Below, one piece after another: positions 2,516-13,813 of a DNA stretch of 32,000 nt. Each line of letters opens with the position of its first letter. Within the stretch, counting starts at the first letter, position 1. The DNA is from Nostoc punctiforme PCC 73102 (GTDB lineage: Bacteria > Cyanobacteriota > Cyanobacteriia > Cyanobacteriales > Nostocaceae), in the NCBI RefSeq assembly GCF_000020025.1, contig NC_010628.1, positions 5,280,001-5,312,000 on the forward strand, in the 5' to 3' direction. The position numbers were made by a program, and so were the translations under genes. The notes beneath the pieces were generated by a model. The model saw only the letters and a program-made list of their open reading frames with translations. It was not told the DNA's origin and made no database searches.

Positions 2516-5500
2516 TTATCTTTGACTTACCAAATCTGCAATTGAGATTATTAATTCAGTTGGTTTTACTGGTTTGGCAAGATGTTTCTGAAAACCAGCT
2601 GCTAAAACTCGATTGCGATCGCTTTCTCCTGCATAAGCTGTAAGAGCGATCGCCGGAATTTCCCCTCCCTCTTCCTTTGGCATAGCCCTGAGCAGCTTAA
2701 TTAGGCTATAGCCATCCATCTCTGGCATTCCTAAATCACTGATTAATACATCAGGTATGGTCTTGACTATGACAGCTAGCGCCTCAGTTACCGATGCTGC
2801 AACAGTTGTTAGTGCCCCATTCTGTTGTAGGAAGAAGTGCAAAAATTCCCGTGTATCAGCATCATCATCAACAATCAATATCCGTAGTCCGGCGATCGCT
2901 AACGAGTTAAGTTTCTCTCTGCCTTCCCCAGTTTCCTCATCTCCCCTACTCTCTTTCATCACAGGCAGTCTGACAGTAAAAATTGCTCCCTGTCCTTCTC
3001 CTGGACTAGCTGCTGTTACAGTTCCACCATGCAACTCTACCAGGTTGCGAACTATTGCTAATCCCAATCCCAGCCCGCCAAATTTTCTGGTTCTACTGCT
3101 ATCGGCTTGACGAAAATATTCAAATACGTGGGGTAGGAATTCAGGGGAAATCCCTTGTCCAGTGTCTTTAACTTGAATCAGTGCTGAGTGGGAAGCCAAT
3201 TCCCCACTTGATGAGAGGCTGACTTCCACAGATCCGTTAGGGGGAGTGAACTTGACAGCGTTCGAGAGTAAGTTCCCTACAACTTGCTGTAAGCGATAAT
3301 AATCCCCCGACACTTTACCAACATTTGGGTCAAGCTGTATTTTGATCTGGATGGATTTGCTTTCTGCGATTAACCGGACTGTTTCTAATGCAGCATCAAT
3401 TACAGATGCTAGGTTAACAGTGGCAAAAGTCAGGTTCAACTTACCGCGAATAATTCGGGATACATCCAGCAACTCATCAATTAATTTAATCTGCAATTGA
3501 GTATTTCTTTCGATGGTTTCTAAGGCTCGATTAGTAGTAGCTTCATCAAATTTGCGGCTTTTGAGTAGCGATGACCAGCCTAAAATTGGGTTGAGGGGCG
3601 ATCGCAATTCGTGGGAGAGAATGGCGAGAAACTCATCTTTGTTTTGGTTTGCCTGTTTGAGTTCCTCTGTTTGTTGTCTAAGTGTCTGTTCTAATTGCTT
3701 CCTTGGGGTTAAGTCCAGAATAAAACAGATCCAAGATGGCGGATCTTTCTCTACCAAAGCCCCACCAATTAGTATGGGAATACGCGAACCATCTTTGCGG
3801 ATATATTCTTTTTCAAAAGGATTACATACTCCAACCGTTAAAAGTTGCTCTATCCCCTGCTCATCAAGAGCGTGATATTCCGGTGGAGTCATCTGTTTTC
3901 TGCGTACCTTACCTGCTAATAGTTCCTCTCGCGTATAACCCACCATTTCTAAAAAAGCCTCGTTCGCCTCAGTAATATGGTCAGGTGTCGCGAACATAAT
4001 GCCAATAATATTGGAATCAACTAAGCGCCTTAATTGAGTTTCACGCTGGCGCAAATCATTTTCTATTTGTTTGCGTCCAGTAATATCCTGAGCAGTACCC
4101 ATCATTCGACCTGGCTGATCGTCGGCTTCGTAAAAGACACGACCTTTAGCAGCAATCCAATGAATGCTACCATCAGACCAAAGACTGCGGTATTCAATGT
4201 CATACTCAACCTTTTCCTGAAAACAACGAGCGATCGCTTCATTGAGGCGTTGACGATCTTCTGGATGTATGCAGTTGAGGAAAAGCTCATAGCTCATTTC
4301 GACTTCTGGGCCTAGTCCAAATAGCTCCTTACATTTCTCTGTCCAAACTAACTCGTTGGTGGTAATATTCCAAAACCACATACCCAGTTCCGCAGCAGAA
4401 GTGGCTAACCGAATTCGTTCTTCACTCTCGCGCAGGTTTGTTTCAATTTGCTGGCGATCGCGTAGCGCAGCTTGCTGTTCGCGCAGTATAGCTTGCTGTT
4501 CGGTAATATCAGCACTAGCACCAACTACCCTAACTACCTGACCATTTGTATCCCGGACAGCAAAACCCTGGTCTTGCACCCATACATAGCGGCCATCTTT
4601 GTGACGGATTCGATACTCAATGCTATAACGGTTGCCATTGGCCATACTAGCCATGAACTGGTTATTAACTCTTTGTTGGTCATCGGGGTGGATGAGTTGT
4701 TGCCACCACTCGAAGGTAGGTTCAGCTTCTTGTTGGGTGTAGCCCAAAACCTGGGTTAAACCCTGAGTTCTTTCCACACTACTTCTGTGAATTTCCCAGT
4801 CATAGATTAGGCAATTAACCGCCGCAGCTGCTAGCTCAAACCTTTCGTTACTTTGCCGCAGTGAAATTTCTATGTGTCGTCGCTCTGTAATATCAAAAGC
4901 AATGCCTAAAAGATATTTCGGGAATCCCTCAACAGTTCTGCTATGTACAGTGTCATAGCTACAAAACCAACGCCACTCTCCATTAACATGTCGAATGCGG
5001 TACTCAAAACTGAGGACTTCGCCTGGATGGGCAGAATTAAATCTTTCAAAATAAGTAGGGAGTCGAGCCAAATCTTCAGGGTGTAGAAGTTGGGTAAATA
5101 AATCCTTTCCCATTGCCTGGATTTCTGCTGGTGTGTAGCCCCAACCTTGAGCAATTTCGTCATTAACATAAGAATTTCGCTGCTCAATGAGGTCATATAT
5201 GTAAAGTATCCCCGGTAGAGTACCAGCAATTTGTTGGAACAAACGTTGACTATCCCACAGTTGCTGAGATCCATTTACATCTATAACAGAGGCAAGAGGA
5301 ACAATACTTTTAGCTTCTGGCTGCAACCAACTTTCTTCTTCAACTTGTTGAGTATCTTCAGTACAGTTACCTTTTTCCTCAAGTTGTGCCTGCTTAAATT
5401 CTGTAATATCCAAAAAAGTTGTGACGATCGCAAAGGGAGTGTCTACTCCACCTTGGAACAGAGGTTGTGAAGACAGCAATAGCCAGACTAGCTGACCATT

Positions 5501-5833
5501 TGGCTTATAAAAGCCACACACCACATTCAAGCAAGGTTTACCTGTTTTCTGAGCAGCGATCGCTGGGTGAGTTTCGTTAGGTAAAGGAGAGCCATCTTCA
5601 TGAAGAAATTGCCACTTGGAATCGAGCAAGTTCTGCCCTACAAGTTGTTCTGTGGTTAGTCCCAAAATGCGATCGCAAGTTGCATTGCAAGCCTGGATAG
5701 TACCATCCGCCAACTGAAGCACCATTCCCTCTTCTCCACTGGCTAAGAGCGAATAATTTGCTTTTTTACTAACTTGCCGATGCAGCAGCTTTTCATTAGC
5801 CAGCTGGTTTTGGGACTTTTCCGCGTCTGGCAT
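2516..5833 (-). CDS. Hybrid sensor histidine kinase with about five PAS/PAC domains, HisKA, HATPase_c and a C-terminal receiver domain
   Basis: 1105-aa ORF. Repeated PAS/PAC-like blocks (for example YRIRHVNGEWRWF, YRIRHKDGRYVWVQDQG, EYRSLWSDGSIHWIAAKG, EKEYIRKDGSRIPI). H-box is LAILSHELRSPLNPI. N/G boxes are LLSNAVKFTP, DTGQGI, GGLGLGLAIV. Receiver is ILIVDDDADTRE..ISDLGMPEMDG..LTAY..KP. No TM segment is evident, so it is probably cytoplasmic. Confidence 0.92.
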   Translation of the reverse strand: MPDAEKSQNQLANEKLLHRQVSKKANYSLLASGEEGMVLQLADGTIQACNATCDRILGLTTEQLVGQNLLDSKWQFLHEDGSPLPNETHPAIAAQKTGKPCLNVVCGFYKPNGQLVWLLLSSQPLFQGGVDTPFAIVTTFLDITEFKQAQLEEKGNCTEDTQQVEEESWLQPEAKSIVPLASVIDVNGSQQLWDSQRLFQQIAGTLPGILYIYDLIEQRNSYVNDEIAQGWGYTPAEIQAMGKDLFTQLLHPEDLARLPTYFERFNSAHPGEVLSFEYRIRHVNGEWRWFCSYDTVHSRTVEGFPKYLLGIAFDITERRHIEISLRQSNERFELAAAAVNCLIYDWEIHRSSVERTQGLTQVLGYTQQEAEPTFEWWQQLIHPDDQQRVNNQFMASMANGNRYSIEYRIRHKDGRYVWVQDQGFAVRDTNGQVVRVVGASADITEQQAILREQQAALRDRQQIETNLRESEERIRLATSAAELGMWFWNITTNELVWTEKCKELFGLGPEVEMSYELFLNCIHPEDRQRLNEAIARCFQEKVEYDIEYRSLWSDGSIHWIAAKGRVFYEADDQPGRMMGTAQDITGRKQIENDLRQRETQLRRLVDSNIIGIMFATPDHITEANEAFLEMVGYTREELLAGKVRRKQMTPPEYHALDEQGIEQLLTVGVCNPFEKEYIRKDGSRIPILIGGALVEKDPPSWICFILDLTPRKQLEQTLRQQTEELKQANQNKDEFLAILSHELRSPLNPILGWSSLLKSRKFDEATTNRALETIERNTQLQIKLIDELLDVSRIIRGKLNLTFATVNLASVIDAALETVRLIAESKSIQIKIQLDPNVGKVSGDYYRLQQVVGNLLSNAVKFTPPNGSVEVSLSSSGELASHSALIQVKDTGQGISPEFLPHVFEYFRQADSSRTRKFGGLGLGLAIVRNLVELHGGTVTAASPGEGQGAIFTVRLPVMKESRGDEETGEGREKLNSLAIAGLRILIVDDDADTREFLHFFLQQNGALTTVAASVTEALAVIVKTIPDVLISDLGMPEMDGYSLIKLLRAMPKEEGGEIPAIALTAYAGESDRNRVLAAGFQKHLAKPVKPTELIISIADLVSQR

Positions 5834-6162
5834 TCTGTAAAGTTAAATAAATTTAAAGTTAATTTAATATTCAACGGCTTGTACTTACATAAATTTTAGC
5901 CTTATTTCTTCCATTTTTAGGCAAAATATTACTATCTAGTCGGCTTTCCCATTTGTCGATAAGTCTAAATTTAGAAAGCTATCCAGGGAAGGGTATTAAG
6001 ATTATGCCGAATCAACCTCAAGTATAAATAAAGTGATGATTGTTACACGATTAACCTGTACTAATTTTTTAGTTAAAAATTTAAATTTCTTGTGATATAT
6101 TTCTGTAATCTACAATACCCGTGATGTAGATAATATTGTCGGAGATTTTAAAATTTAGTATT

Positions 6163-6328: not shown

Positions 6329-6394
6329 TTGTCTAAAAATAAATCAGCTTATACCAATTCTATGTGAAGCGGCATAAAATCAACCTTGATAAAA

Positions 6395-6414
6395 CAAGGA
6401 GCTTAAGCCCCTTG
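6395..6414 (-). terminator. Candidate intrinsic terminator of the coiled-coil gene pair
   Basis: CAAGGAGCTTAAGCCCCTTG forms a CAAGG/CCTTG stem. On the minus strand it is followed by TTTTA. It lies about 30 nt downstream of the stop at 6443. Confidence 0.4.
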
Positions 6415-6442
6415 CTCTATACAACGTCAAAAATAATCGGTA

Positions 6443-7522
6443 TTATTTATTTTTCGCTTGAGTCTTTGCCTGTTCTAAAGCTATTTCTTTAATAGCCTGA
6501 TATGAATTAACATTTGAAGTCCCTTCAATAGCTTTAACTGCCAAATCCTGAACTTGCTTGAGAGCAGATTCAAGTTGTTTAGAAAGATTTTGAATCCGCG
6601 TCTCTTGATTAGTAATAGTTTGTTCTAGAGATTGCAATCTTTGTTCATAGAAACGCTTTTGCCCTTCCACTTCCTTAGAATATAAATCTGATTTTACTTT
6701 CGCCTGGTAATGGGCGATGCCTTTGCCTTCTTCTATAGCTTTTTTGATAGCTGCTTCTTTGTCTTTCGGGAAAGCCTCTACCTTAGCTTTTAATTCTTCA
6801 AATTGTTTCTCTCTCTCAGAAATTGCTTTCTCTCGTTCAGCCCATTGTTTCTCTGTCTCTTGTAGTAATTCTTCTAGTTGTTTATATAGTGCTTTCTGCT
6901 CTTGTTCGTATTCGTCACTTTGCAATTGTCGTTGGAGTTCTAAATTATACTTATACTCTGATGCATCGCGTTGTCGAGTTTTCTTCAAGTTTTCATTCCG
7001 TTCTTTTATCGCCCGTTGCTGTTCTTCCTGTTCTTTTCCCCAAATATTTCTTTGTTCTAGTATTTCTTGGAATAACACTTCGGAACGCTGGTTATATTCT
7101 TCCTGATAAGCTTTTGTATTATCTTCATAAGATTGGATGAGAGTATCCAAGATATCATCAGAAATTTCTAAATTGTGCAACTGTGTTAATTGTTGGATTT
7201 CTTCTTCTAAATTTCGCCTTATTTCTTCTAAATTAGAGGCTTTTGTGGTTAGCTGTTCCGATAATTCATTAGCAGCACTGCCAAAACCTAATTGAATCTT
7301 TGCCAAGCTTTCAATTGTATTGTTCATCTTCTGTTGGACGCTAGAAAGCTGATTCATAGCTATTTTTTGTTCTAATTTAGGCTGTTCTTTAGTTCCAGAC
7401 TGGTTTTCTTTGGCAACTTTTTCAAGTTCCGATTTCAGTGCTGCTTTTTCTTTAGCTAACTCCTCAAACGCCTGAAGAATTTCTACTTTAGTATTCTTAT
7501 CAGTCGGCTTTTTCACCACCAC
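6443..7522 (-). CDS. Coiled-coil-rich protein (CCRP), distal member of a tandem paralog pair; candidate ZacK (Alr4505)-like
   Basis: 359-aa ORF. GTG start at 7522 is preceded by GGAGG 7 nt upstream. The composition is overwhelmingly E/K/Q/L with heptad-like periodicity. There is no TM segment and no catalytic motif. It is colinear with the upstream neighbour (see findings). Confidence 0.85.
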   Translation of the reverse strand: MVVKKPTDKNTKVEILQAFEELAKEKAALKSELEKVAKENQSGTKEQPKLEQKIAMNQLSSVQQKMNNTIESLAKIQLGFGSAANELSEQLTTKASNLEEIRRNLEEEIQQLTQLHNLEISDDILDTLIQSYEDNTKAYQEEYNQRSEVLFQEILEQRNIWGKEQEEQQRAIKERNENLKKTRQRDASEYKYNLELQRQLQSDEYEQEQKALYKQLEELLQETEKQWAEREKAISEREKQFEELKAKVEAFPKDKEAAIKKAIEEGKGIAHYQAKVKSDLYSKEVEGQKRFYEQRLQSLEQTITNQETRIQNLSKQLESALKQVQDLAVKAIEGTSNVNSYQAIKEIALEQAKTQAKNK

Positions 7523-7575
7523 AACAAACCTCCTCTTCAGGAATTAAAAATGGTTAAGATGCTACGGACTCGTAA

Positions 7576-8559
7576 CTATTTAGGGTTAGAACTACCAAAA
7601 GCCCTCATAGCTAAGTCTTGTGCTTGTTTTAATGCAGTTTGCAATTGAGCAGAGATACCTTCTATTTGCTCAGACTGTTTTTTAATTGTTTCTTCCAAAG
7701 ATTGAATTTTTTGCTCATAACTCTGTTTGTTAGATTCCCATTCTCTCTCAAATAAATCAGCCTCAATTTTAGCTTTTTGACTTGTTTCTTTAATTGCTTC
7801 TTCTCTAGCTTTCTTTACGGCTTCTTCCAGTTCGTTAGGAAATGTAGTTACCTTTTGTTCATAGTCTGCAAACAGTGGTTGGCGTTCAGCGAATATCTTT
7901 TCTCGTTCTGCCCAATCTTTCTCTTTCTTTTGAGAATTTTCTTGTATTTCCCTTTGTTGTTGGCGTTTTACCGCTTCGTAGCTATCTGTATTGAGTTTAC
8001 GAGTAGTTTCTAACTTATATTGAGATTCTTCTTGTTCTTGCTGGCGCTCTTTGATTAATAAATCGTTATATTCTTGGAGTTTTTCTTCATACTCAGCTTG
8101 CTCTTTTTGCCATTCTTTACGCCTAGTTGTAATTTCTTTTTCTAGTGCTTCCCTTTTACTAATAGTATCTTGCTCTAAAGTTTTTAATTTTTCTTGATGT
8201 TCTTGACTTAAAATGTCTAGAGTATCCGCTACAACTCTGATTTGTTGAAGCTCTTGTAAGCGTTGAGTTTCAATTTCTATAGCTCGGTTCAATTCATCTA
8301 ACTTAGAATTTTCCTGAGCTAGTTTTTCAGATAACGCATTGAGAATACTGCCAAACTCCAATTGTAAATCAGCTAAACCTTTGACAATACTATCAACCGT
8401 ATATGTAGAAGCTGCTTGCAGAATTTCTTGACTTTTTGCCTTGTCTGCTTCCTCTTGTTTGGTTGCTATTTTAGATTCCAGCTTTTTTCTTTGGATAATA
8501 ATTTGTTGAAATGCTTGCATTAGTTGTTGTTTGCTGTCCTTGACTCCAACTGTAGTCAT
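7576..8559 (-). CDS. Coiled-coil-rich protein (CCRP), proximal member of the tandem paralog pair; candidate ZicK (Alr4504)-like
   Basis: The ORF track gives 7576-8607. I prefer ATG at 8559 (MTTVGVKDSKQQ...) because GGGAG lies about 8 nt upstream, while the 16-aa extension (MACYPINHLPIEGSWK) has no SD. It has the same E/K/Q/L coiled-coil composition and shares blocks with 6443-7522. Confidence 0.85.
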   Translation of the reverse strand: MTTVGVKDSKQQLMQAFQQIIIQRKKLESKIATKQEEADKAKSQEILQAASTYTVDSIVKGLADLQLEFGSILNALSEKLAQENSKLDELNRAIEIETQRLQELQQIRVVADTLDILSQEHQEKLKTLEQDTISKREALEKEITTRRKEWQKEQAEYEEKLQEYNDLLIKERQQEQEESQYKLETTRKLNTDSYEAVKRQQQREIQENSQKKEKDWAEREKIFAERQPLFADYEQKVTTFPNELEEAVKKAREEAIKETSQKAKIEADLFEREWESNKQSYEQKIQSLEETIKKQSEQIEGISAQLQTALKQAQDLAMRAFGSSNPK

Positions 8560-9025
8560 CTTCCAACTCCCTTCAATAGGCAAATGATTTATTGGGTAGC
8601 AAGCCATACCAATGACTACCCTATGCAGACATCAGAGTAGCCTTTAAATCAACATTTTTCACGCAGTGTAAATACTGAAATGATTGATATAGGACACTTA
8701 GATGGTACGAATTTTCCACAGTTATGTCCTTCTATTTTTCAGGTATAGTTTTCCCTTTGGGACGTACTAGTACTTTTGTACTAAAATAAATATACTTAAC
8801 CTCATCTCTTCTTGTCAAGATAATGCTTTATATAATTGCGGCACCCAACAAAGTATTAAAAGCCGACAATCATATTAATTTAGGAGGATGATGTTGAATG
8901 TGTTACTTTTTGTAAAGAAAATCTAAAAGAATTAACCCTAGCAGAAGCGCCGTCGCACTAAGGCGAGATAATAAGTTTAATCATGCTAATTGATACAAGC
9001 ACAGTCCCAGACTTTTGTGATATCA

Positions 9026-9778
9026 ATGTATACCACTGAATCGACCAAATACTCTGCCAGAACGGAAATTGGACAAACCAGCCGTATTCTAGTAGTAGAA
9101 GATGAAGAATTAATCCAGGAAATGCTAGCTGTAGCCCTGGAAGAAGAAGGTTACGGGGTGATAACTGCACCCGATGGGCGATCTGCTATAGAGTATCTCA
9201 AAAGTTTTGAAACCAACTCAGGGGAAGTTCCCTTTGATTTGATCATTCTTGATTTGATGCTGCCACAAATCAATGGGCTAGATATATGCCGTTTGCTGCG
9301 TCATCAAGGAAACCCAGTTCCGATTTTAATGCTCAGTGCTAAGGGTAGTGAAACTGACCGCGTTCTGGGGTTAGAGGTGGGAGCAGATGACTACCTGACC
9401 AAACCTTTTAGTATGCGCGAGTTAGTGGCTCGTTGCCGCGCTTTACTCCGCCGCCAACGCCTAAGTAATTTACCACAACTACCAGTATTAAAATTCAAAG
9501 ATGTTACTTTGAATCCTCAAGAATGTCGGGTGCTGGTTCGTGGTCAAGAGGTGAGCCTTTCACCTAAAGAGTTCCGCTTGCTGGAATTGTTTATGAGTTA
9601 TGCCCGGAGGGTATGGTCGCGGGAACAATTACTAGATCAGGTTTGGGGGCCAGATTTCGTTGGTGATAGTAAAACTGTAGACGTTCATATTCGCTGGTTG
9701 CGCGAAAAATTAGAGCAAGACCCCAGTCATCCCGAATATATTGTGACTGTACGAGGTTTTGGCTATAGGTTTGGATAA
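9026..9778 (+). CDS. OmpR/PhoB-family response regulator (SphR/PhoB-like by context)
   Basis: Receiver motifs ILVVEDEE..LIILDLMLPQINGL..MLSAKG..KPF. Winged-helix output motifs are LSPKEFRLLELFM..VDVHIRWLREKLE..IVTVRGFGYRF. The track start at 8990 is TTG. The first in-frame ATG is 9026, so the start is uncertain. Confidence 0.9.
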   Translation: MYTTESTKYSARTEIGQTSRILVVEDEELIQEMLAVALEEEGYGVITAPDGRSAIEYLKSFETNSGEVPFDLIILDLMLPQINGLDICRLLRHQGNPVPILMLSAKGSETDRVLGLEVGADDYLTKPFSMRELVARCRALLRRQRLSNLPQLPVLKFKDVTLNPQECRVLVRGQEVSLSPKEFRLLELFMSYARRVWSREQLLDQVWGPDFVGDSKTVDVHIRWLREKLEQDPSHPEYIVTVRGFGYRFG

Positions 9779-9831: not shown

Positions 9832-11151
9832 ATGCTTTTATTGGGATTTTTTCTGGGTTTAGCAGTAGGCATTGGGTTTTGGATTTGGCAACAGGTTCAA
9901 CTTAACCGCTACCTGGGGCGCTTATTCCGACCGTTAACCTCGCATTCTTCCAAGAAGGGACTGCTGCTGATTCCTGGGTTATGGCAGGAAATAGCGATGG
10001 TGAAACAGCAACGCCAAGATTTGCAGCAATCATTGCAAACTTACCAAGACTTGCTAGATTTTGCACCAGTGGGATATTTGCAGGTAGATGAGGAAAATCA
10101 ACTGCTGTGGTGTAATCGGCAGGCGCAGGAAATTTTGTATCTGCAAAGGTGGCAACCAGAAGAAATACGTTTACTACTAGAGTTAGTACGGTCTTACGAA
10201 CTTGACCATTTAATTGAGCAAACTCGCGATCGCCAAAAACCACAGACGGGAGAATGGATATTTCATCCATCTTGTGATGATGCGGCAGAGATGCCAACAC
10301 TAAAATCTCTGGCTTTGCGGGCATCTAGTTTGCCTTTACCTAATGGACAAGTAGGAGTATTTTTAGAAAATCGTCAACCCCTATTAGATATAAATCAAGT
10401 ACGCGATCGCTCTTTTTCCGATTTAGCCCACGAACTCAGAACGCCCTTGACTTCGATTCGCTTGGTGGTGGAAACTTTACAAATTCGCTTGGAACCACCT
10501 CTAAATCGCTGGGTTAACCGTTTGATGCAGGAAGTCGATCGGCTGATTAACTTAGTGCAAAGCTGGTTAGACCTCACCCAAATGGAAGCAAACCCAACCA
10601 TGCAATTGCAAGCCAAAGCTGTAGAATTGCGATCGCTAATTACATCTGTTTGGGAAACACTAGAACCTCTAGCACAGCGCCACCATCTATCTCTTTCTTA
10701 TTCTGGCCCAGAAAATCTTTGGATTAAAGCAGATCAAGCCCGGATTTTTCAAGTTTTTCTCAACTTGCTAGACAACAGTATTAAATACAGTCCTCCTTCT
10801 ACAAGTATTCGTGTTGAAGCGAAAATCTTATCAACAAAAAATAATGATGCTACTTCTCCAATTCTAGAAATAAATCTTATTGATTCTGGAGTCGGGTTTT
10901 CTGAGGCAGATTTACCCCACGTTTTTGAGCGATTTTATCGAGGAGATAAGGCACGAACCCATTCTCCACAAGATAGTAACTCCATCGGGGCGATCGTTGG
11001 CAATGGATTAGGATTAGCGATCGTCGAGCAAATTCTGATCGCCCACGGTGGCTCAATCAAAGCTATGAACCATCCAGAGACCGGTGGTGCGTGGATGCAA
11101 CTTCAATTTCCTGAAGTTATGGCAAACTCCTTAAGCCAAGACTATAGTTAG
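9832..11151 (+). CDS. Sensor histidine kinase, PhoR/SphS-like (N-terminal hydrophobic segment, PAS-like region, HisKA, HATPase_c)
   Basis: 439 aa. N-terminus is MLLLGFFLGLAVGIGFWIW. H-box is FSDLAHELRTPLTSI. N/G boxes are LLDNSIKYSP, DSGVGF, GLGLAIV. It starts 53 nt after the regulator gene and is followed 28 nt later by phoU. Confidence 0.9.
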   Translation: MLLLGFFLGLAVGIGFWIWQQVQLNRYLGRLFRPLTSHSSKKGLLLIPGLWQEIAMVKQQRQDLQQSLQTYQDLLDFAPVGYLQVDEENQLLWCNRQAQEILYLQRWQPEEIRLLLELVRSYELDHLIEQTRDRQKPQTGEWIFHPSCDDAAEMPTLKSLALRASSLPLPNGQVGVFLENRQPLLDINQVRDRSFSDLAHELRTPLTSIRLVVETLQIRLEPPLNRWVNRLMQEVDRLINLVQSWLDLTQMEANPTMQLQAKAVELRSLITSVWETLEPLAQRHHLSLSYSGPENLWIKADQARIFQVFLNLLDNSIKYSPPSTSIRVEAKILSTKNNDATSPILEINLIDSGVGFSEADLPHVFERFYRGDKARTHSPQDSNSIGAIVGNGLGLAIVEQILIAHGGSIKAMNHPETGGAWMQLQFPEVMANSLSQDYS

Positions 11152-11179: not shown

Positions 11180-11848
11180 GTGAAAGCTGTCCATTATGGT
11201 TCCAATCCTCAAAGACCCGAACTAGCACGCGCCATTAGGCGCTTAGAACGGGACGTATTACGCATGGGTGCTTTGGTAGAACAATCATTTCGCCTCAGCC
11301 ACCAAGCGTTATTTGCTCGTAACTTAACAGCAGCTGAGGAACTTCCTCTATTAGATAAAAAGATTGATCGCTTTTATCGTCAAATCGAATCAGACTGTAC
11401 GGCGATTATGACGCTGCAAGCGCCTACGGCTCAAGATTTGCGCTGCTTGAGTGCCTTTATGCAACTGGTGCGAGACTTAGAGCGCATTGGCGATTATGCT
11501 GAAGATTTAGCTGAGATTGCGATTAAAATTTTTCCTTATGCGCCTCATACGTGTTTATCTGAAATTGAAGCCATGTCCCTTCACGCGCAGGCAATGCTAG
11601 CAACTAGCTTGAAGGCTTTGGGAGATTTCGATGAAGGCGGTGGTCGACGTTTAAAGCACCTAGATGATACTGTAGACGATGCTTACGATCGCGTTTATCA
11701 AACTTTAGCCCAACAACGGGATGTACCTGGTGTAGTCGAGCCAATTGTGCTGCTAGCACTGGCAATTCGTTGTCTAGAACGGATGGCAGATCATGCAACT
11801 AATATCGGTCAGAGGGTGGCATATATTGTCACCGGTCAACGCTCTTAA
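11180..11848 (+). CDS. phoU: PhoU-family phosphate signalling modulator (SphU-like)
   Basis: 222 aa with a GTG start. Two PhoU repeats carry the characteristic acidic helices: VRDLERIGDYAEDLAEIA and IRCLERMADHATNIGQRVAYIVTG. Confidence 0.88.
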   Translation: MKAVHYGSNPQRPELARAIRRLERDVLRMGALVEQSFRLSHQALFARNLTAAEELPLLDKKIDRFYRQIESDCTAIMTLQAPTAQDLRCLSAFMQLVRDLERIGDYAEDLAEIAIKIFPYAPHTCLSEIEAMSLHAQAMLATSLKALGDFDEGGGRRLKHLDDTVDDAYDRVYQTLAQQRDVPGVVEPIVLLALAIRCLERMADHATNIGQRVAYIVTGQRS

Positions 11849-12370: not shown

Positions 12371-13813
12371 TCAATTTTTCATCGGCTTTTTTAGAGCTTG
12401 GATATCACGTACAAGCCAAAATATAATTACTGCTAGAGTTGGTACAACCGTTAAAAAATCGCACAGTCGAATACCTCGTAATAGATAGTTAAAAACAGTA
12501 CTGCTAATACAGAAGACGATGGTAGTAATCACGAATCTTTTTGAATTAGAATCTATGTTTAAAGCTACGACTGCCAACAGCACAGAGGAATACCAAGAGC
12601 AATACCAAGGAGCAGCAAACAAAAATAATATTAAGGTAATCCATCCTATATTTATAGTAAAAGTAGTTTCAGAATACTTTTTTTTCAAAAATGGTTTTAC
12701 CAGAATAATCAAGTAAGAAACTACAAATATAGAAAAGATTATAGGTTTTAATGTTGAGAATACGGTTTCTTGAAAAGTTGCAGGAAGGTTTAGAATGTTC
12801 AAACTTAGTACATTCTTAATAAAACCATATAATGAACCACCTACTCTGTCTTTAACGCCAGGATTGAAAAGGCTTGTCCAAGCATCGACTGAAGGTAAAG
12901 CTATCAGAGAAGTTGCAAAAATTATAGCTACAGAGATAAAAATAGCACTAAATAGAATTTTCCAACGTTGTTGCTTAATCAAATAAACAAAAATTAGGGG
13001 CAACCAAACAATTGGTAATGTTTTAATTAGAAAACCAATCCAAGCTGTAACAATCGCAGCTATATAATTATAGTTTTTAAGGCATATTATTAAAATAATT
13101 AAAATGGTAGAAATTAAAACATCTATATGGGCATTCGTAATCTGCTCGTACACAAGTAATGGGCTAAGTAAATATGCAATTGTTACATTAGCTTTATGAG
13201 GAGAGTTTTTTAAATGCCCCCAAATTAAGTAGCTATTTAATATATGGAATAAAAGACAGATTAATTTAAATGCATAAATTCCTAAACTAGGAGTAATTGC
13301 AACGAAAAGACCGGAAAACATAAAAAATAGTTGAGATATAGGCCCATAAGTAGAAGTCTGTTTCCAAATAAGAAATGGAGACAATTCTGAGGTAAATGCG
13401 CTTGCAGGATTCAGAAAAGGGTTAATTCCATTTAAATACATCAAACCATAATGTACATACAAATTTATATCAGTAGTTATTGGATAACCTGCAAAGGCAA
13501 TTAACAGAAAAAATGAACTATTCTTTAAAATTTTTATAAAGGTTATATCTTTTTTGTTATTTCTGTTTATTATTAGCCAAGCAATATATATAATATTTAA
13601 ACAAATGAATTCTATACCCGTTCTTATTTGGTCAAAGGGGTTAGGAAAATCAGGTAAATATCGACCAGTGGAATTACCTAAAGCCTCAAGATAAAAAGAA
13701 TAAGCTCTAATTGCTAATTCTCCACATAATAGTAATGAAAAGAATATGGCTAAACTTAATAATATTTTGTTTTTCTTAGTATTAGATAAATTGTTTGCGT
13801 TTAGTAGAAACAT
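12371..13813 (-). CDS. Polytopic integral membrane protein, GT-C-like (DUF2029/PimE- or ArnT-style polyprenyl-phosphate-sugar-dependent glycosyltransferase candidate)
   Basis: 480 aa with at least 10 predicted hydrophobic spans. It is rich in F/I/L/N/K/Y as expected of very AT-rich DNA. It contains loop motifs such as TSTYGPISQLFF. The family call rests on architecture plus the neighbouring GT2-GtrA gene, not on an alignment. Confidence 0.6.
   Translation of the reverse strand: MFLLNANNLSNTKKNKILLSLAIFFSLLLCGELAIRAYSFYLEALGNSTGRYLPDFPNPFDQIRTGIEFICLNIIYIAWLIINRNNKKDITFIKILKNSSFFLLIAFAGYPITTDINLYVHYGLMYLNGINPFLNPASAFTSELSPFLIWKQTSTYGPISQLFFMFSGLFVAITPSLGIYAFKLICLLFHILNSYLIWGHLKNSPHKANVTIAYLLSPLLVYEQITNAHIDVLISTILIILIICLKNYNYIAAIVTAWIGFLIKTLPIVWLPLIFVYLIKQQRWKILFSAIFISVAIIFATSLIALPSVDAWTSLFNPGVKDRVGGSLYGFIKNVLSLNILNLPATFQETVFSTLKPIIFSIFVVSYLIILVKPFLKKKYSETTFTINIGWITLILFLFAAPWYCSWYSSVLLAVVALNIDSNSKRFVITTIVFCISSTVFNYLLRGIRLCDFLTVVPTLAVIIFWLVRDIQALKKPMKN

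Follow-up and report, generated by a model that had tools for sequence, protein, structure and literature searches.

Paralogous helical rod proteins encoded in tandem in Nostoc punctiforme PCC 73102, assigned by sequence to the ZicK and ZacK families

In Anabaena PCC 7120, neither ZicK (Alr4504) nor ZacK (Alr4505) forms filaments without the other, and their joint assembly is nucleotide-independent (Springstein et al., bioRxiv 10.1101/553073). The pair binds MreB, SepJ, and SepI. A pull-down with Alr4504-GFP recovered native Alr4505 with 6 unique peptides. In the double mutant the trichomes run in zigzags and the cells are swollen (bioRxiv 10.1101/553073). The same authors caution that filaments appeared only when the protein was tagged, over-expressed, or refolded, that the tagged ZicK/ZacK pair failed to complement the mutant, and that no filaments were seen in sections of wild-type Anabaena (bioRxiv 10.1101/553073). 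The pair bears on how filamentous cyanobacteria hold their chain of cells straight. To our knowledge, it is the sole reported bacterial coiled-coil filament system that requires two different subunits.

We analyzed a window of 32,000 nucleotides from Nostoc punctiforme PCC 73102 (contig NC_010628.1, positions 5,280,001 to 5,312,000), in which two adjacent minus-strand genes encode rod proteins of this kind. The ZicK/ZacK pair is already known, and orthologues in another Nostoc add nothing new in themselves. Our additions for structural work are the paralogy of the two proteins, the heptad-like ends, charged centre, and 3.64-residue seam of the rod, the conserved gene spacing, and the reach of the family to single-copy genes and a jumbo phage.

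Identity and arrangement of the gene pair

The upstream gene (7576..8559, minus strand) encodes 327 amino acids, and the downstream gene (6443..7522, minus strand) encodes 359 amino acids from a GTG start. The longest reading frame of the upstream gene is 7576..8607 (343 amino acids). The ATG at 8559 gives the 327-residue form, which is the form in nearly all ZicK orthologues; these have 324–327 residues and begin with MTT or MTI. For the downstream gene, a second GTG at 7519 is an alternative possible start, and the spacer alignment showed GTA in place of the first GTG in N. linckia and Desmonostoc.

The 359-residue protein matched WP_016950122.1, WP_015127897.1, and WP_039743308.1 over its full length with 75–77% identity, and the 327-residue protein matched WP_015137204.1 and KYC39694.1 with 77% and 74% identity, respectively, all at 99–100% coverage. 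Springstein et al. (bioRxiv 10.1101/553073) list the first three under ZacK and the last two under ZicK in their Supplementary File 2 of homologues. Orthology to Alr4504 and Alr4505 was drawn through these accession lists and through the sizes in the authors' mass-spectrometry table, which gives 327 amino acids, 38.2 kDa, and pI 5.2 for Alr4504 and 359 amino acids, 41.5 kDa, and pI 5.53 for Alr4505. The Nostoc proteins have the same lengths and near-identical masses and isoelectric points (38.3 kDa and pI 5.12; 41.8 kDa and pI 5.31). These agreements supported the assignment of the 327-residue protein as a ZicK orthologue and of the 359-residue protein as a ZacK orthologue, in line with the ZicK/ZacK-type identity that the initial annotation had proposed for the pair. 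In a genome-collection scan, which returned only close Nostoc relatives, the closest locus was that of Nostoc sp. UCD121 (ZacK, 99% identity).

Divergent from the pair lie genes for an OmpR-type, SphR/PhoB-like response regulator (8990..9778, plus strand; Pfam Response_reg and Trans_reg_C), an SphS/PhoR-like histidine kinase (9832..11151, plus strand; Pfam HisKA and HATPase_c), and PhoU (11180..11848, plus strand; Pfam PhoU, E 8e-38). They are the equivalents of all4503, all4502, and all4501, which are sphR, sphS, and phoU (PMC7564538). An OprB porin gene lies further along from the pair, as does all4499, which has been treated as a porin-like gene (PMC9705863). The synteny with Anabaena that had been proposed for this locus was recovered. 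Of 80 Nostoc loci examined, 78 had the order PhoU–kinase–regulator, divergent zicK, then zacK, and so did Calothrix PCC 7507 and Scytonema PCC 7110. The regulator gene adjoined zicK in 79 of the 80, and also in Calothrix, Scytonema, and one further locus (L082). PhoX adjoins the locus in Scytonema, and Kovacikia carries the zicK–zacK pair with no Pho genes nearby. The regulator, kinase, and PhoU genes are genomic context and lie outside the filament system.

The two genes are 53 nt apart and each has a strong Shine-Dalgarno sequence, as first annotated. The spacer (7523..7575, minus strand) contains that of zacK, GGAGG at 7529–7533 (minus strand), 6 nt 5' of the GTG; that of zicK, GGGAG at 8567..8571 (minus strand), is 7 nt 5' of the ATG at 8559. 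Among the 80 Nostoc loci, 55 had a spacer of exactly 53 nt; lengths otherwise lay between 52 and 66 nt, apart from one spacer of 182 nt, and AGGAG was invariant across the spacer alignment. In this strain the spacer has no strong hairpin (RNA fold z −1.8), and no terminator-like site was found in the gap between the genes; the orthologous spacers in Calothrix and Scytonema have very strong hairpins. An intrinsic-terminator-like hairpin is located at 6389..6420 (minus strand), 23 nt past the zacK stop, with a GC-rich core GCAAGGGGC-UUAA-GCUCCUUGU followed by UUUUAU. The fold of 6370–6445 (minus strand) had −26.2 kcal/mol and z −5.2, and none of 200 shuffles was as stable. A candidate promoter, TTGACA-18-TATATT at 8789..8818 (minus strand), matches the consensus at 11 of 12 positions and lies some 230 nt 5' of zicK, between that gene and the divergent regulator gene, which share this stretch; the consensus scan across the region gave a total count of promoter-like sites no higher than in shuffles. 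Because the spacer is short and fixed, carries its own Shine-Dalgarno sequence, and lacks a hairpin, and because a terminator follows only zacK, equal and adjacent synthesis of the two products may be favoured in this strain. The claim that the pair is co-transcribed was unsupported as written, since no common zicK–zacK transcript was found in Anabaena by Springstein et al. (bioRxiv 10.1101/553073).

Paralogy, rod structure and wider family

In BLASTP with composition-based statistics, ZacK and ZicK were 36% identical across 329 residues (E 6e-55). The Smith-Waterman score was 564, against 112±13 for 300 shuffles (maximum 156; z = 36) and 192 for the reversed sequence. The two proteins align colinearly with hardly a gap, and the alignment contains all six matching blocks quoted in the initial annotation. 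Its invariant residues include W, Y, F, P, and D, which are not heptad-core types. Among 122 members of the ZicK and ZacK families, 24 columns were invariant and F251-P252 was conserved in at least 90%; P252 was invariant even in distant relatives. Sequence comparison thus confirmed ZicK and ZacK as clear, colinear paralogues, a relationship nowhere mentioned in the preprint bioRxiv 10.1101/553073.

The AlphaFold 2 models contain helices at residues 8–41, 51–333, and 341–358 in ZacK (pLDDT 81) and at 7–52 and 55–322 in ZicK (pLDDT 85). The longest single helix spans 283 residues in ZacK and 268 in ZicK, and no globular fold was modeled. No TM-like segment was detected, the maximum 19-residue Kyte-Doolittle means being 1.0 and 0.4, as expected from the earlier reading. 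That reading had also called the proteins almost pure E/K/Q/L coiled coil. They are indeed nearly all-helical, but "almost pure" is too strong: E, K, Q, and L make up 49–50% of residues in both, and the heptad a/d signal rose above shuffles at only 31–34% of window positions along both rods. Likewise, the FP motif described as a conserved break is well conserved, but the modeled helix runs unbroken through it.

The rod centre is highly charged (42–45%) and poor in hydrophobic residues; instead of a coiled coil, it may form a stable single helix. The global hydrophobic period was 3.64 residues. None of 100 shuffles surpassed this peak in ZacK orthologues; in ZicK orthologues it was weak, and in three of four, 20–48 of 100 shuffles surpassed it. 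A period of 3.64 equals 51/14 and is not sharply separable from 11/3 at such a sequence length. The ZacK autocorrelation was higher at lag 11 than at lag 7, positive at 11, 18, 29, and 51, and negative at 49. The conserved hydrophobic seam of the rods is heptad-like near both ends (about residues 57–125 and 281–336 in ZacK); taken over its full length, it combines spacings of 7 and 11 residues, which gives the 3.64 period.

The family comprises at least 453 clusters at 50% identity (E < 1e-30) and also includes single-copy genes, one of which adjoins an integrase and a PIN toxin. One match bears the label PF27605.1, and a query with P0307, from the third, single-copy clade, returned seven proteins. 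With hmmscan, both proteins matched the PHROG profile phrog_29668 over their full length: ZacK with E 2.1e-24 (residues 6–339 against profile positions 4–346 of 357) and ZicK with E 4.8e-18 (residues 1–320 against 1–338). For gp268 of the Bacillus jumbo phage G, hhalign gave 99% probability and E 5.6e-18 over 319 columns. The homology is colinear and full-length, and the proline, Y192, R230-E231, and Q-D-x-A positions are kept. Differences are that gp268 is a single gene from a phage of a Gram-positive host, has about 24–27% identity, and lacks the 3.64 periodicity peak. Scans of viral contigs with the family profile and gp268 recovered phage G itself and nothing else.

It is conceivable, but we regard it as rather unlikely, that the ZicK/ZacK pair represents a cyanobacterial branch, formed by duplication, within a wider unnamed family of single-helix rods of 320–380 residues, whose mechanism of assembly or partner binding predates cyanobacterial multicellularity and in which hetero-pairing came with duplication. 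If so, the invariant non-core residues of the LxFGS, W-x-ERE-K, FP, Y-E-x-K-I-Q-S-L, and Q-D-L-A motifs together with the 3.64-residue seam would mark a conserved mechanism of assembly or partner binding, this mechanism would be older than cyanobacterial multicellularity, and duplication would be the origin of the obligate hetero-pairing, comparable to that of keratins or alpha/beta-tubulin.

Proposed function and alternative readings

Very probably, the two genes are zicK and zacK orthologues encoding tandem-duplicated helical rods that would pair into protomers and build filaments. The genes arose by tandem duplication. Each product is predicted to be an acidic cytoplasmic protein consisting essentially of one alpha-helix of 268–283 residues, which would be about 40 nm long. 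The paralogues probably associate laterally to form a ZicK:ZacK coiled-coil protomer, and these protomers would then assemble into filaments without nucleotide. Heteropolymer formation by the Nostoc pair is taken over from the Anabaena experiments and is to be expected by analogy. Taken together, the paralogy, the rod pattern, the conserved gene spacing, and the reach of the family suggest that the building block is a parallel heterodimer of duplicated chains. The conserved residues are targets for mutation.

Searches of Pfam and NCBIfam gave no significant domain, only sub-threshold short coiled-coil noise, in agreement with the annotated lack of an enzymatic motif. Both proteins are about 50% E/K/Q/L, and proteins rich in these residues give weak spurious matches, such as those to SlyX, SMC, and apolipoprotein A-I at E 0.01–0.3. 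That the likeness of the two proteins to each other and to ZicK/ZacK might reflect shared coiled-coil composition instead of homology is nevertheless practically impossible. The composition-corrected E value of 6e-55, a Smith-Waterman score (564) above both the best of 300 shuffles (156) and the reversed sequence (192), the colinear, near-gapless alignment with invariant non-core W, Y, F, P, and D, and the full-length identity of 74–77% to listed ZicK and ZacK homologues all argue against it, and the E-value, shuffle, and full-length identity tests already refuted it. Membership in a known non-cytoskeletal helical family (PspA/IM30/ESCRT-III, TelA, DivIVA, or SMC/DNA-metabolism proteins) is also very improbable. 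Some matches carry the source annotations "chromosome segregation ATPase", "SbcCD ATPase subunit", or "myosin heavy chain", a role in DNA metabolism was guessed from STRING in a study of BMAA (PMC8147232), and CHMP1B appeared in the Foldseek list at E 0.5. However, Pfam at E ≤ 1 contained only short coiled-coil noise, the PDB sequence profile search yielded no match under E 0.09, none under E 0.36 came from Foldseek with the ZacK model (a long single helix being a poor query for fold searches), and PADLOC gave no significant defence match, the best being PbeC at E 0.007 and 13 bits. The confident profile match to a non-cytoskeletal family that, by the initial annotation, would have counted against the pair was absent from the Pfam, NCBIfam, PDB profile, and Foldseek searches. 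The PspA/IM30/ESCRT-III family was rejected on the lack of a Pfam match, an extended single helix without a hairpin, and a CHMP1B match of just E 0.5. SMC/SbcC-type membership was rejected as well, because the flanking ABC ATPase heads are absent by Pfam, the whole protein is a helical rod, and the NCBIfam profile SMC_prok_A, whose cut-off is 729.4 bits, reached a score of 8.8.

A stress- or nutrient-responsive scaffold that protects or organises other complexes, with the zigzag phenotype arising indirectly, is an improbable alternative to a constitutive cytoskeleton. The expression of such a scaffold would rise when cells meet nitrogen, phosphate, or toxic stress. Under BMAA, Alr4505 increased 20-fold and Alr4504 4.35-fold, and both were described as NtcA-regulated (PMC8147232). 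The divergent sphR–sphS–phoU linkage is strictly conserved in heterocystous taxa, with PhoX next door in Scytonema; the Anabaena pull-down brought along chaperones, RecA, and ParA together with MreB (bioRxiv 10.1101/553073); and native filaments are unseen to date. On the other hand, sphR, sphS, and phoU showed little change in expression during phosphate stress and refeeding (PMC7564538), and the Pho linkage may be merely inherited gene order, because the Kovacikia pair has no Pho genes nearby. A search for the Pho-box pattern YTTAAYYW-N3-YTTAAYYW with at most 3 mismatches gave 108 sites against 75 expected, scattered as noise in AT-rich DNA and uninformative for zicK. The NtcA pattern GTA-N8-TAC occurred in the window at a chance count, with 6 sites found against 5.9 expected; the candidate near zicK (8596–8609) was rejected, as transcription from it would begin nearly at the start codon itself. 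A structural role agrees with the mutant phenotype and with the binding of MreB, SepJ, and SepI published for Anabaena.

Comparison with described filament systems

We compared the proteins with other rod systems. Sequence or profile kinship to the intermediate filament, crescentin, and FilP families was rejected, as the Pfam, PDB profile, and Foldseek searches gave nothing for them. The Scy/FilP class comprises Streptomyces intermediate filament-like coiled-coil proteins (Walshaw, Gillespie and Kelemen 2010, cited in PMC3718342). Like ZicK and ZacK, as known from Anabaena, these are long bacterial rods that form filaments without nucleotide. Scy/FilP proteins reportedly have a 51-residue repeat with a non-heptad hydrophobic period, which would be shared with ZacK, whose peak of 3.64 equals 51/14. 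They differ in that ZicK and ZacK are much shorter and depend on one another, while FilP and Scy can each assemble without a partner, and no sequence similarity was seen through Pfam, NCBIfam, and PDB sequences, an indirect route of comparison.

Crescentin (CreS, Caulobacter) and eukaryotic intermediate filaments share with ZicK/ZacK segmented helical rods, nucleotide-independent assembly, and a functional tie to MreB and cell shape, which is published for ZicK/ZacK. In contrast, ZicK and ZacK have no head or tail domains, their rod of about 270–280 residues was modeled as one unbroken helix, and they gave no match to Pfam Filament or a related family at E ≤ 1, nor any intermediate filament sequence match. 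Like the type I/II keratins, ZicK and ZacK would work as an obligate pair of paralogues.

The closest system is ZicK/ZacK of Anabaena/Nostoc sp. PCC 7120. It belongs to another strain, the listed homologues from other Nostocales genera are 74–77% identical to our pair, and the published functional work was done there. The two systems have in common the families by the authors' lists, the lengths of 327 and 359 residues, the gene order and orientation, the divergent sphR–sphS–phoU neighbours, and proteins with no recognisable domain.

Identity and common origin of the gene pair

Two minus-strand ORFs were found 53 nt apart, as the initial annotation had stated, each behind a Shine–Dalgarno site. 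zacK (6443..7522) encodes 359 aa from a GTG start, with GGAGG (7529–7533) 6 nt ahead of it. The longest zicK ORF (7576..8607) encodes 343 aa; starting instead at an internal ATG (8559), which has GGGAG (8567–8571) 7 nt ahead, shortens the product to 327 aa. The ATG at 8559 is the correct zicK start, because almost all orthologues have 324–327 aa and begin with MTT or MTI. The zacK start region (7514–7522) contains three GTG codons in a row. The second (7519) may be the true start, as the first is replaced by GTA in Nostoc linckia and Desmonostoc.

Orthology was tested with the homologue accessions in Supplementary File 2 of Springstein et al. (bioRxiv 10.1101/553073). The 359-aa protein matched WP_016950122.1 (Anabaena PCC 7108), WP_015127897.1 (Calothrix PCC 7507), and WP_039743308.1 (Hassallia) over the full length with 75–77% identity; all three are listed as ZacK. 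The 327-aa protein matched WP_015137204.1 (Nostoc PCC 7524, 77%) and KYC39694.1 (Scytonema PCC 7110, 74%), both listed as ZicK. The mass-spectrometry table of the same preprint gives 327 aa, 38.2 kDa, and pI 5.2 for Alr4504 and 359 aa, 41.5 kDa, and pI 5.53 for Alr4505. The computed values here were 327 aa, 38.3 kDa, and pI 5.12, and 359 aa, 41.8 kDa, and pI 5.31, respectively. These agreements identified the upstream gene as zicK and the downstream gene as zacK, the pair that the initial annotation had proposed. Its observation and its interpretation both hold in essence: this is a further Nostoc carrying the ZicK/ZacK pair already known from the literature. The best-matching locus was that of Nostoc sp. 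UCD121, whose version of the 359-aa protein is 99% identical.

ZicK and ZacK shared 36% identity over 329 residues (composition-corrected BLASTP, E 6e-55). Their Smith–Waterman score was 564, whereas 300 shuffles gave 112 ± 13 with a maximum of 156, and the reversed sequence gave 192; similarity from shared composition alone was refuted by the E value and by this shuffle maximum. When 122 members drawn from the two families were aligned, 24 columns were invariant and about 60 more were ≥90% conserved, including W, Y, F, P, and D, which are not typical coiled-coil core residues. The colinear blocks quoted in the initial annotation were all recovered in the BLASTP and family alignments. Because all these tests agreed, the paralogy is real and not a composition artefact, and a common origin of ZicK and ZacK is clear from the comparison. 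The words paralog and duplication are absent from the preprint, which handled ZicK and ZacK as separate clusters (bioRxiv 10.1101/553073). The paralogy is an addition beyond the published story.

Gene neighborhood and transcription

Divergent from zicK lie genes for an OmpR-type response regulator, a histidine kinase, and PhoU, with an OprB porin gene further along, separated from phoU by three ORFs. In PCC 7120, all4503, all4502, and all4501 are sphR, sphS, and phoU (PMC7564538), and all4499 was handled as a porin-like gene (PMC9705863), so the synteny with that strain given in the initial annotation was correct. The order PhoU–kinase–regulator, then divergent zicK–zacK, was found in 78 of 80 Nostoc loci. 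It was also present in Calothrix PCC 7507, one metagenomic contig, and Scytonema PCC 7110, where PhoX was located alongside. The metagenomic contig, which is Nostocales-like, has a DDE transposase gene (L082:4876–5736) inserted between zicK and zacK; therefore, their adjacency can be broken with both genes intact.

The non-heterocystous Kovacikia minuta (Leptolyngbyales) keeps the pair (L089:2959–3960 and 4803–5891; 52% and 55% identity) with an 842-nt gap, but Pho two-component genes are absent from the surrounding 5 kb. This agrees with the statement that the neighborhood differs outside heterocystous forms (Springstein et al., bioRxiv 10.1101/553073). The replicon that carries the pair (pA, NZ_CP083583.1; 1.2 Mb) has been annotated as a plasmid. 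In the window, the gene immediately after zacK (2516–5833, minus strand) encodes a hybrid histidine kinase of 1105 aa that has a receiver domain and several PAS domains. A close copy of it (>90% identity) was seen in the nearest relatives only, indicating that the zacK side of the neighborhood is variable. A 480-aa ORF without a Pfam domain (12371–13813, minus strand), between phoU and a GT2 glycosyltransferase gene, had a relative (87–89% identity) in the closest Nostoc loci only.

The zicK–zacK spacer, 53 nt long in 55 of the 80 Nostoc loci, contained no terminator-like site in the window and folded weakly (z −1.8). A strong terminator-like hairpin follows zacK (6389–6420, z −5.2), and a candidate promoter with a good −35/−10 match lies upstream of zicK (8818–8789). 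This arrangement is consistent with co-transcription here, as initially proposed, but co-transcription is unproven because no joint transcript was found in Anabaena (bioRxiv 10.1101/553073) and very stable spacer hairpins occur in Calothrix PCC 7507 (L083 ~6926–6980; −51.5 kcal/mol, z −6.5) and Scytonema PCC 7110 (L084 ~7974–8038; −46.4 kcal/mol, z −5.2). These GC-rich hairpins, matched in stability by none of 200 shuffles and without a counterpart in the window spacer, might terminate, attenuate, or process the transcript. An NtcA-type GTA-N8-TAC motif was located at 8596–8609, 37–50 nt ahead of the zicK ATG, where it overlaps the alternative ATG at 8607. The whole window contained six such motifs versus a chance expectation of 5.9.

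Predicted helical architecture and distant relatives

AlphaFold2 monomer models were built with deep alignments. The ZacK model (pLDDT 80.7) had helices at residues 8–41, 51–333, and 341–358, and the ZicK model (pLDDT 85.4) at 7–52 and 55–322. Each protein is thus modeled as essentially one long helix, with no globular domain in either model; the pTM of 0.29 for both is expected of an extended monomer. The initial annotation had described almost pure coiled coils, which is too strong. E+K+Q+L account for 49–50% of residues, but a heptad a/d pattern exceeded the 95th percentile of shuffles at only 31–34% of sliding-window positions along the proteins, mainly in ZacK windows centered at ~63–110 and 291–330, and the rod center (~residues 151–235) is 42–45% charged and hydrophobic-poor. 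In ZacK ~218–290, i/i+4 opposite-charge pairs are enriched, and this stretch could be a stable single helix. AlphaFold2 did not model the structural break proposed at the conserved FP. Its proline is invariant, including in the most distant relatives, and pLDDT drops after it.

The dominant hydrophobic period was 3.64, not 3.5. In each of four ZacK orthologues, none of 100 shuffles reached this peak; it was present in ZicK too, mostly not significantly. Among 135 family representatives, the 3.63–3.66 bin was the most populated. Autocorrelation was higher at lag 11 than at lag 7, positive at 18, 29, and 51, and negative at 49, a pattern indicating a predicted hydrophobic seam of heptads mixed with hendecads.

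No Pfam or NCBIfam family was found for either protein, and no match was below E 0.36 with Foldseek of the ZacK model against the PDB or below E 0.09 in a profile search of PDB sequences. Membership of PspA, SMC, TelA, or DivIVA failed in all these tests. One of 120 ZacK orthologues (P0112) bears the precomputed label PF27605.1, which may be a recent Pfam family covering ZicK/ZacK-type proteins.

In a profile search, 1.84 billion representatives yielded 453 clusters with E < 1e-30 and 1398 with E < 1e-10. The top 150 representatives split into ZicK-like proteins, ZacK-like proteins, and a third group of nine equidistant from both. P0307 of the third group (L081:3514–4566; ~37–39% identity to each) and the more distant P0444 (L086:344–1378; 31–34%), retrieved together, are single-copy, without an adjacent paralogue gene. 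P0307 adjoins a PIN toxin pair and an integrase-like gene. ZacK and ZicK also matched PHROG 29668, of unknown function, over the full length (E 2e-24 and 5e-18, respectively). The 342-aa gp268 of Bacillus phage G (L087:3845–4873; JN638751.1 197030–198058) is a full-length homologue (hhalign probability 99%, E 5.6e-18, 319 columns) and retains the conserved proline, Y192, R230-E231, and Q-D-x-A positions. No further phage copies were found in the phage collection or IMG/VR. Phage G is a jumbo phage of Bacillus megaterium.

Filament formation in Anabaena and a possible stress-responsive role

Anabaena ZicK and ZacK formed filaments without nucleotide, both in vitro and in vivo, but only when the two were combined, and they interacted with MreB, SepJ, and SepI; Alr4504-GFP recovered native Alr4505, and the double mutant was zigzagged (bioRxiv 10.1101/553073). 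The authors cautioned that filaments were obtained only with tagged or refolded protein, that the tagged pair did not complement the mutant, and that no native filaments were seen (bioRxiv 10.1101/553073). That the pair is instead a stress-responsive scaffold has some support: the Pho gene linkage is conserved, Alr4505 rose 20-fold under BMAA, and alr4504/alr4505 were described as NtcA-regulated in the same proteomics paper (PMC8147232). However, sphR, sphS, and phoU expression varied little under phosphate stress (PMC7564538), and neither a convincing Pho box nor a convincing NtcA site emerged from motif searches of the window.

For the heteropolymer, the building block would be two paralogous helices paired side by side, with the heptad-like ends and conserved motifs mediating register and longitudinal contacts. 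The few small additions made here to the published account could help structural work on the system. Type I/II keratins have a duplicated-subunit arrangement like the one suggested here for ZicK/ZacK. A 51/14 = 3.64 repeat was reportedly described for the Streptomyces Scy/FilP class by Walshaw et al. in 2010; the 3.64 period of ZacK is a resemblance to that class, not membership in it.
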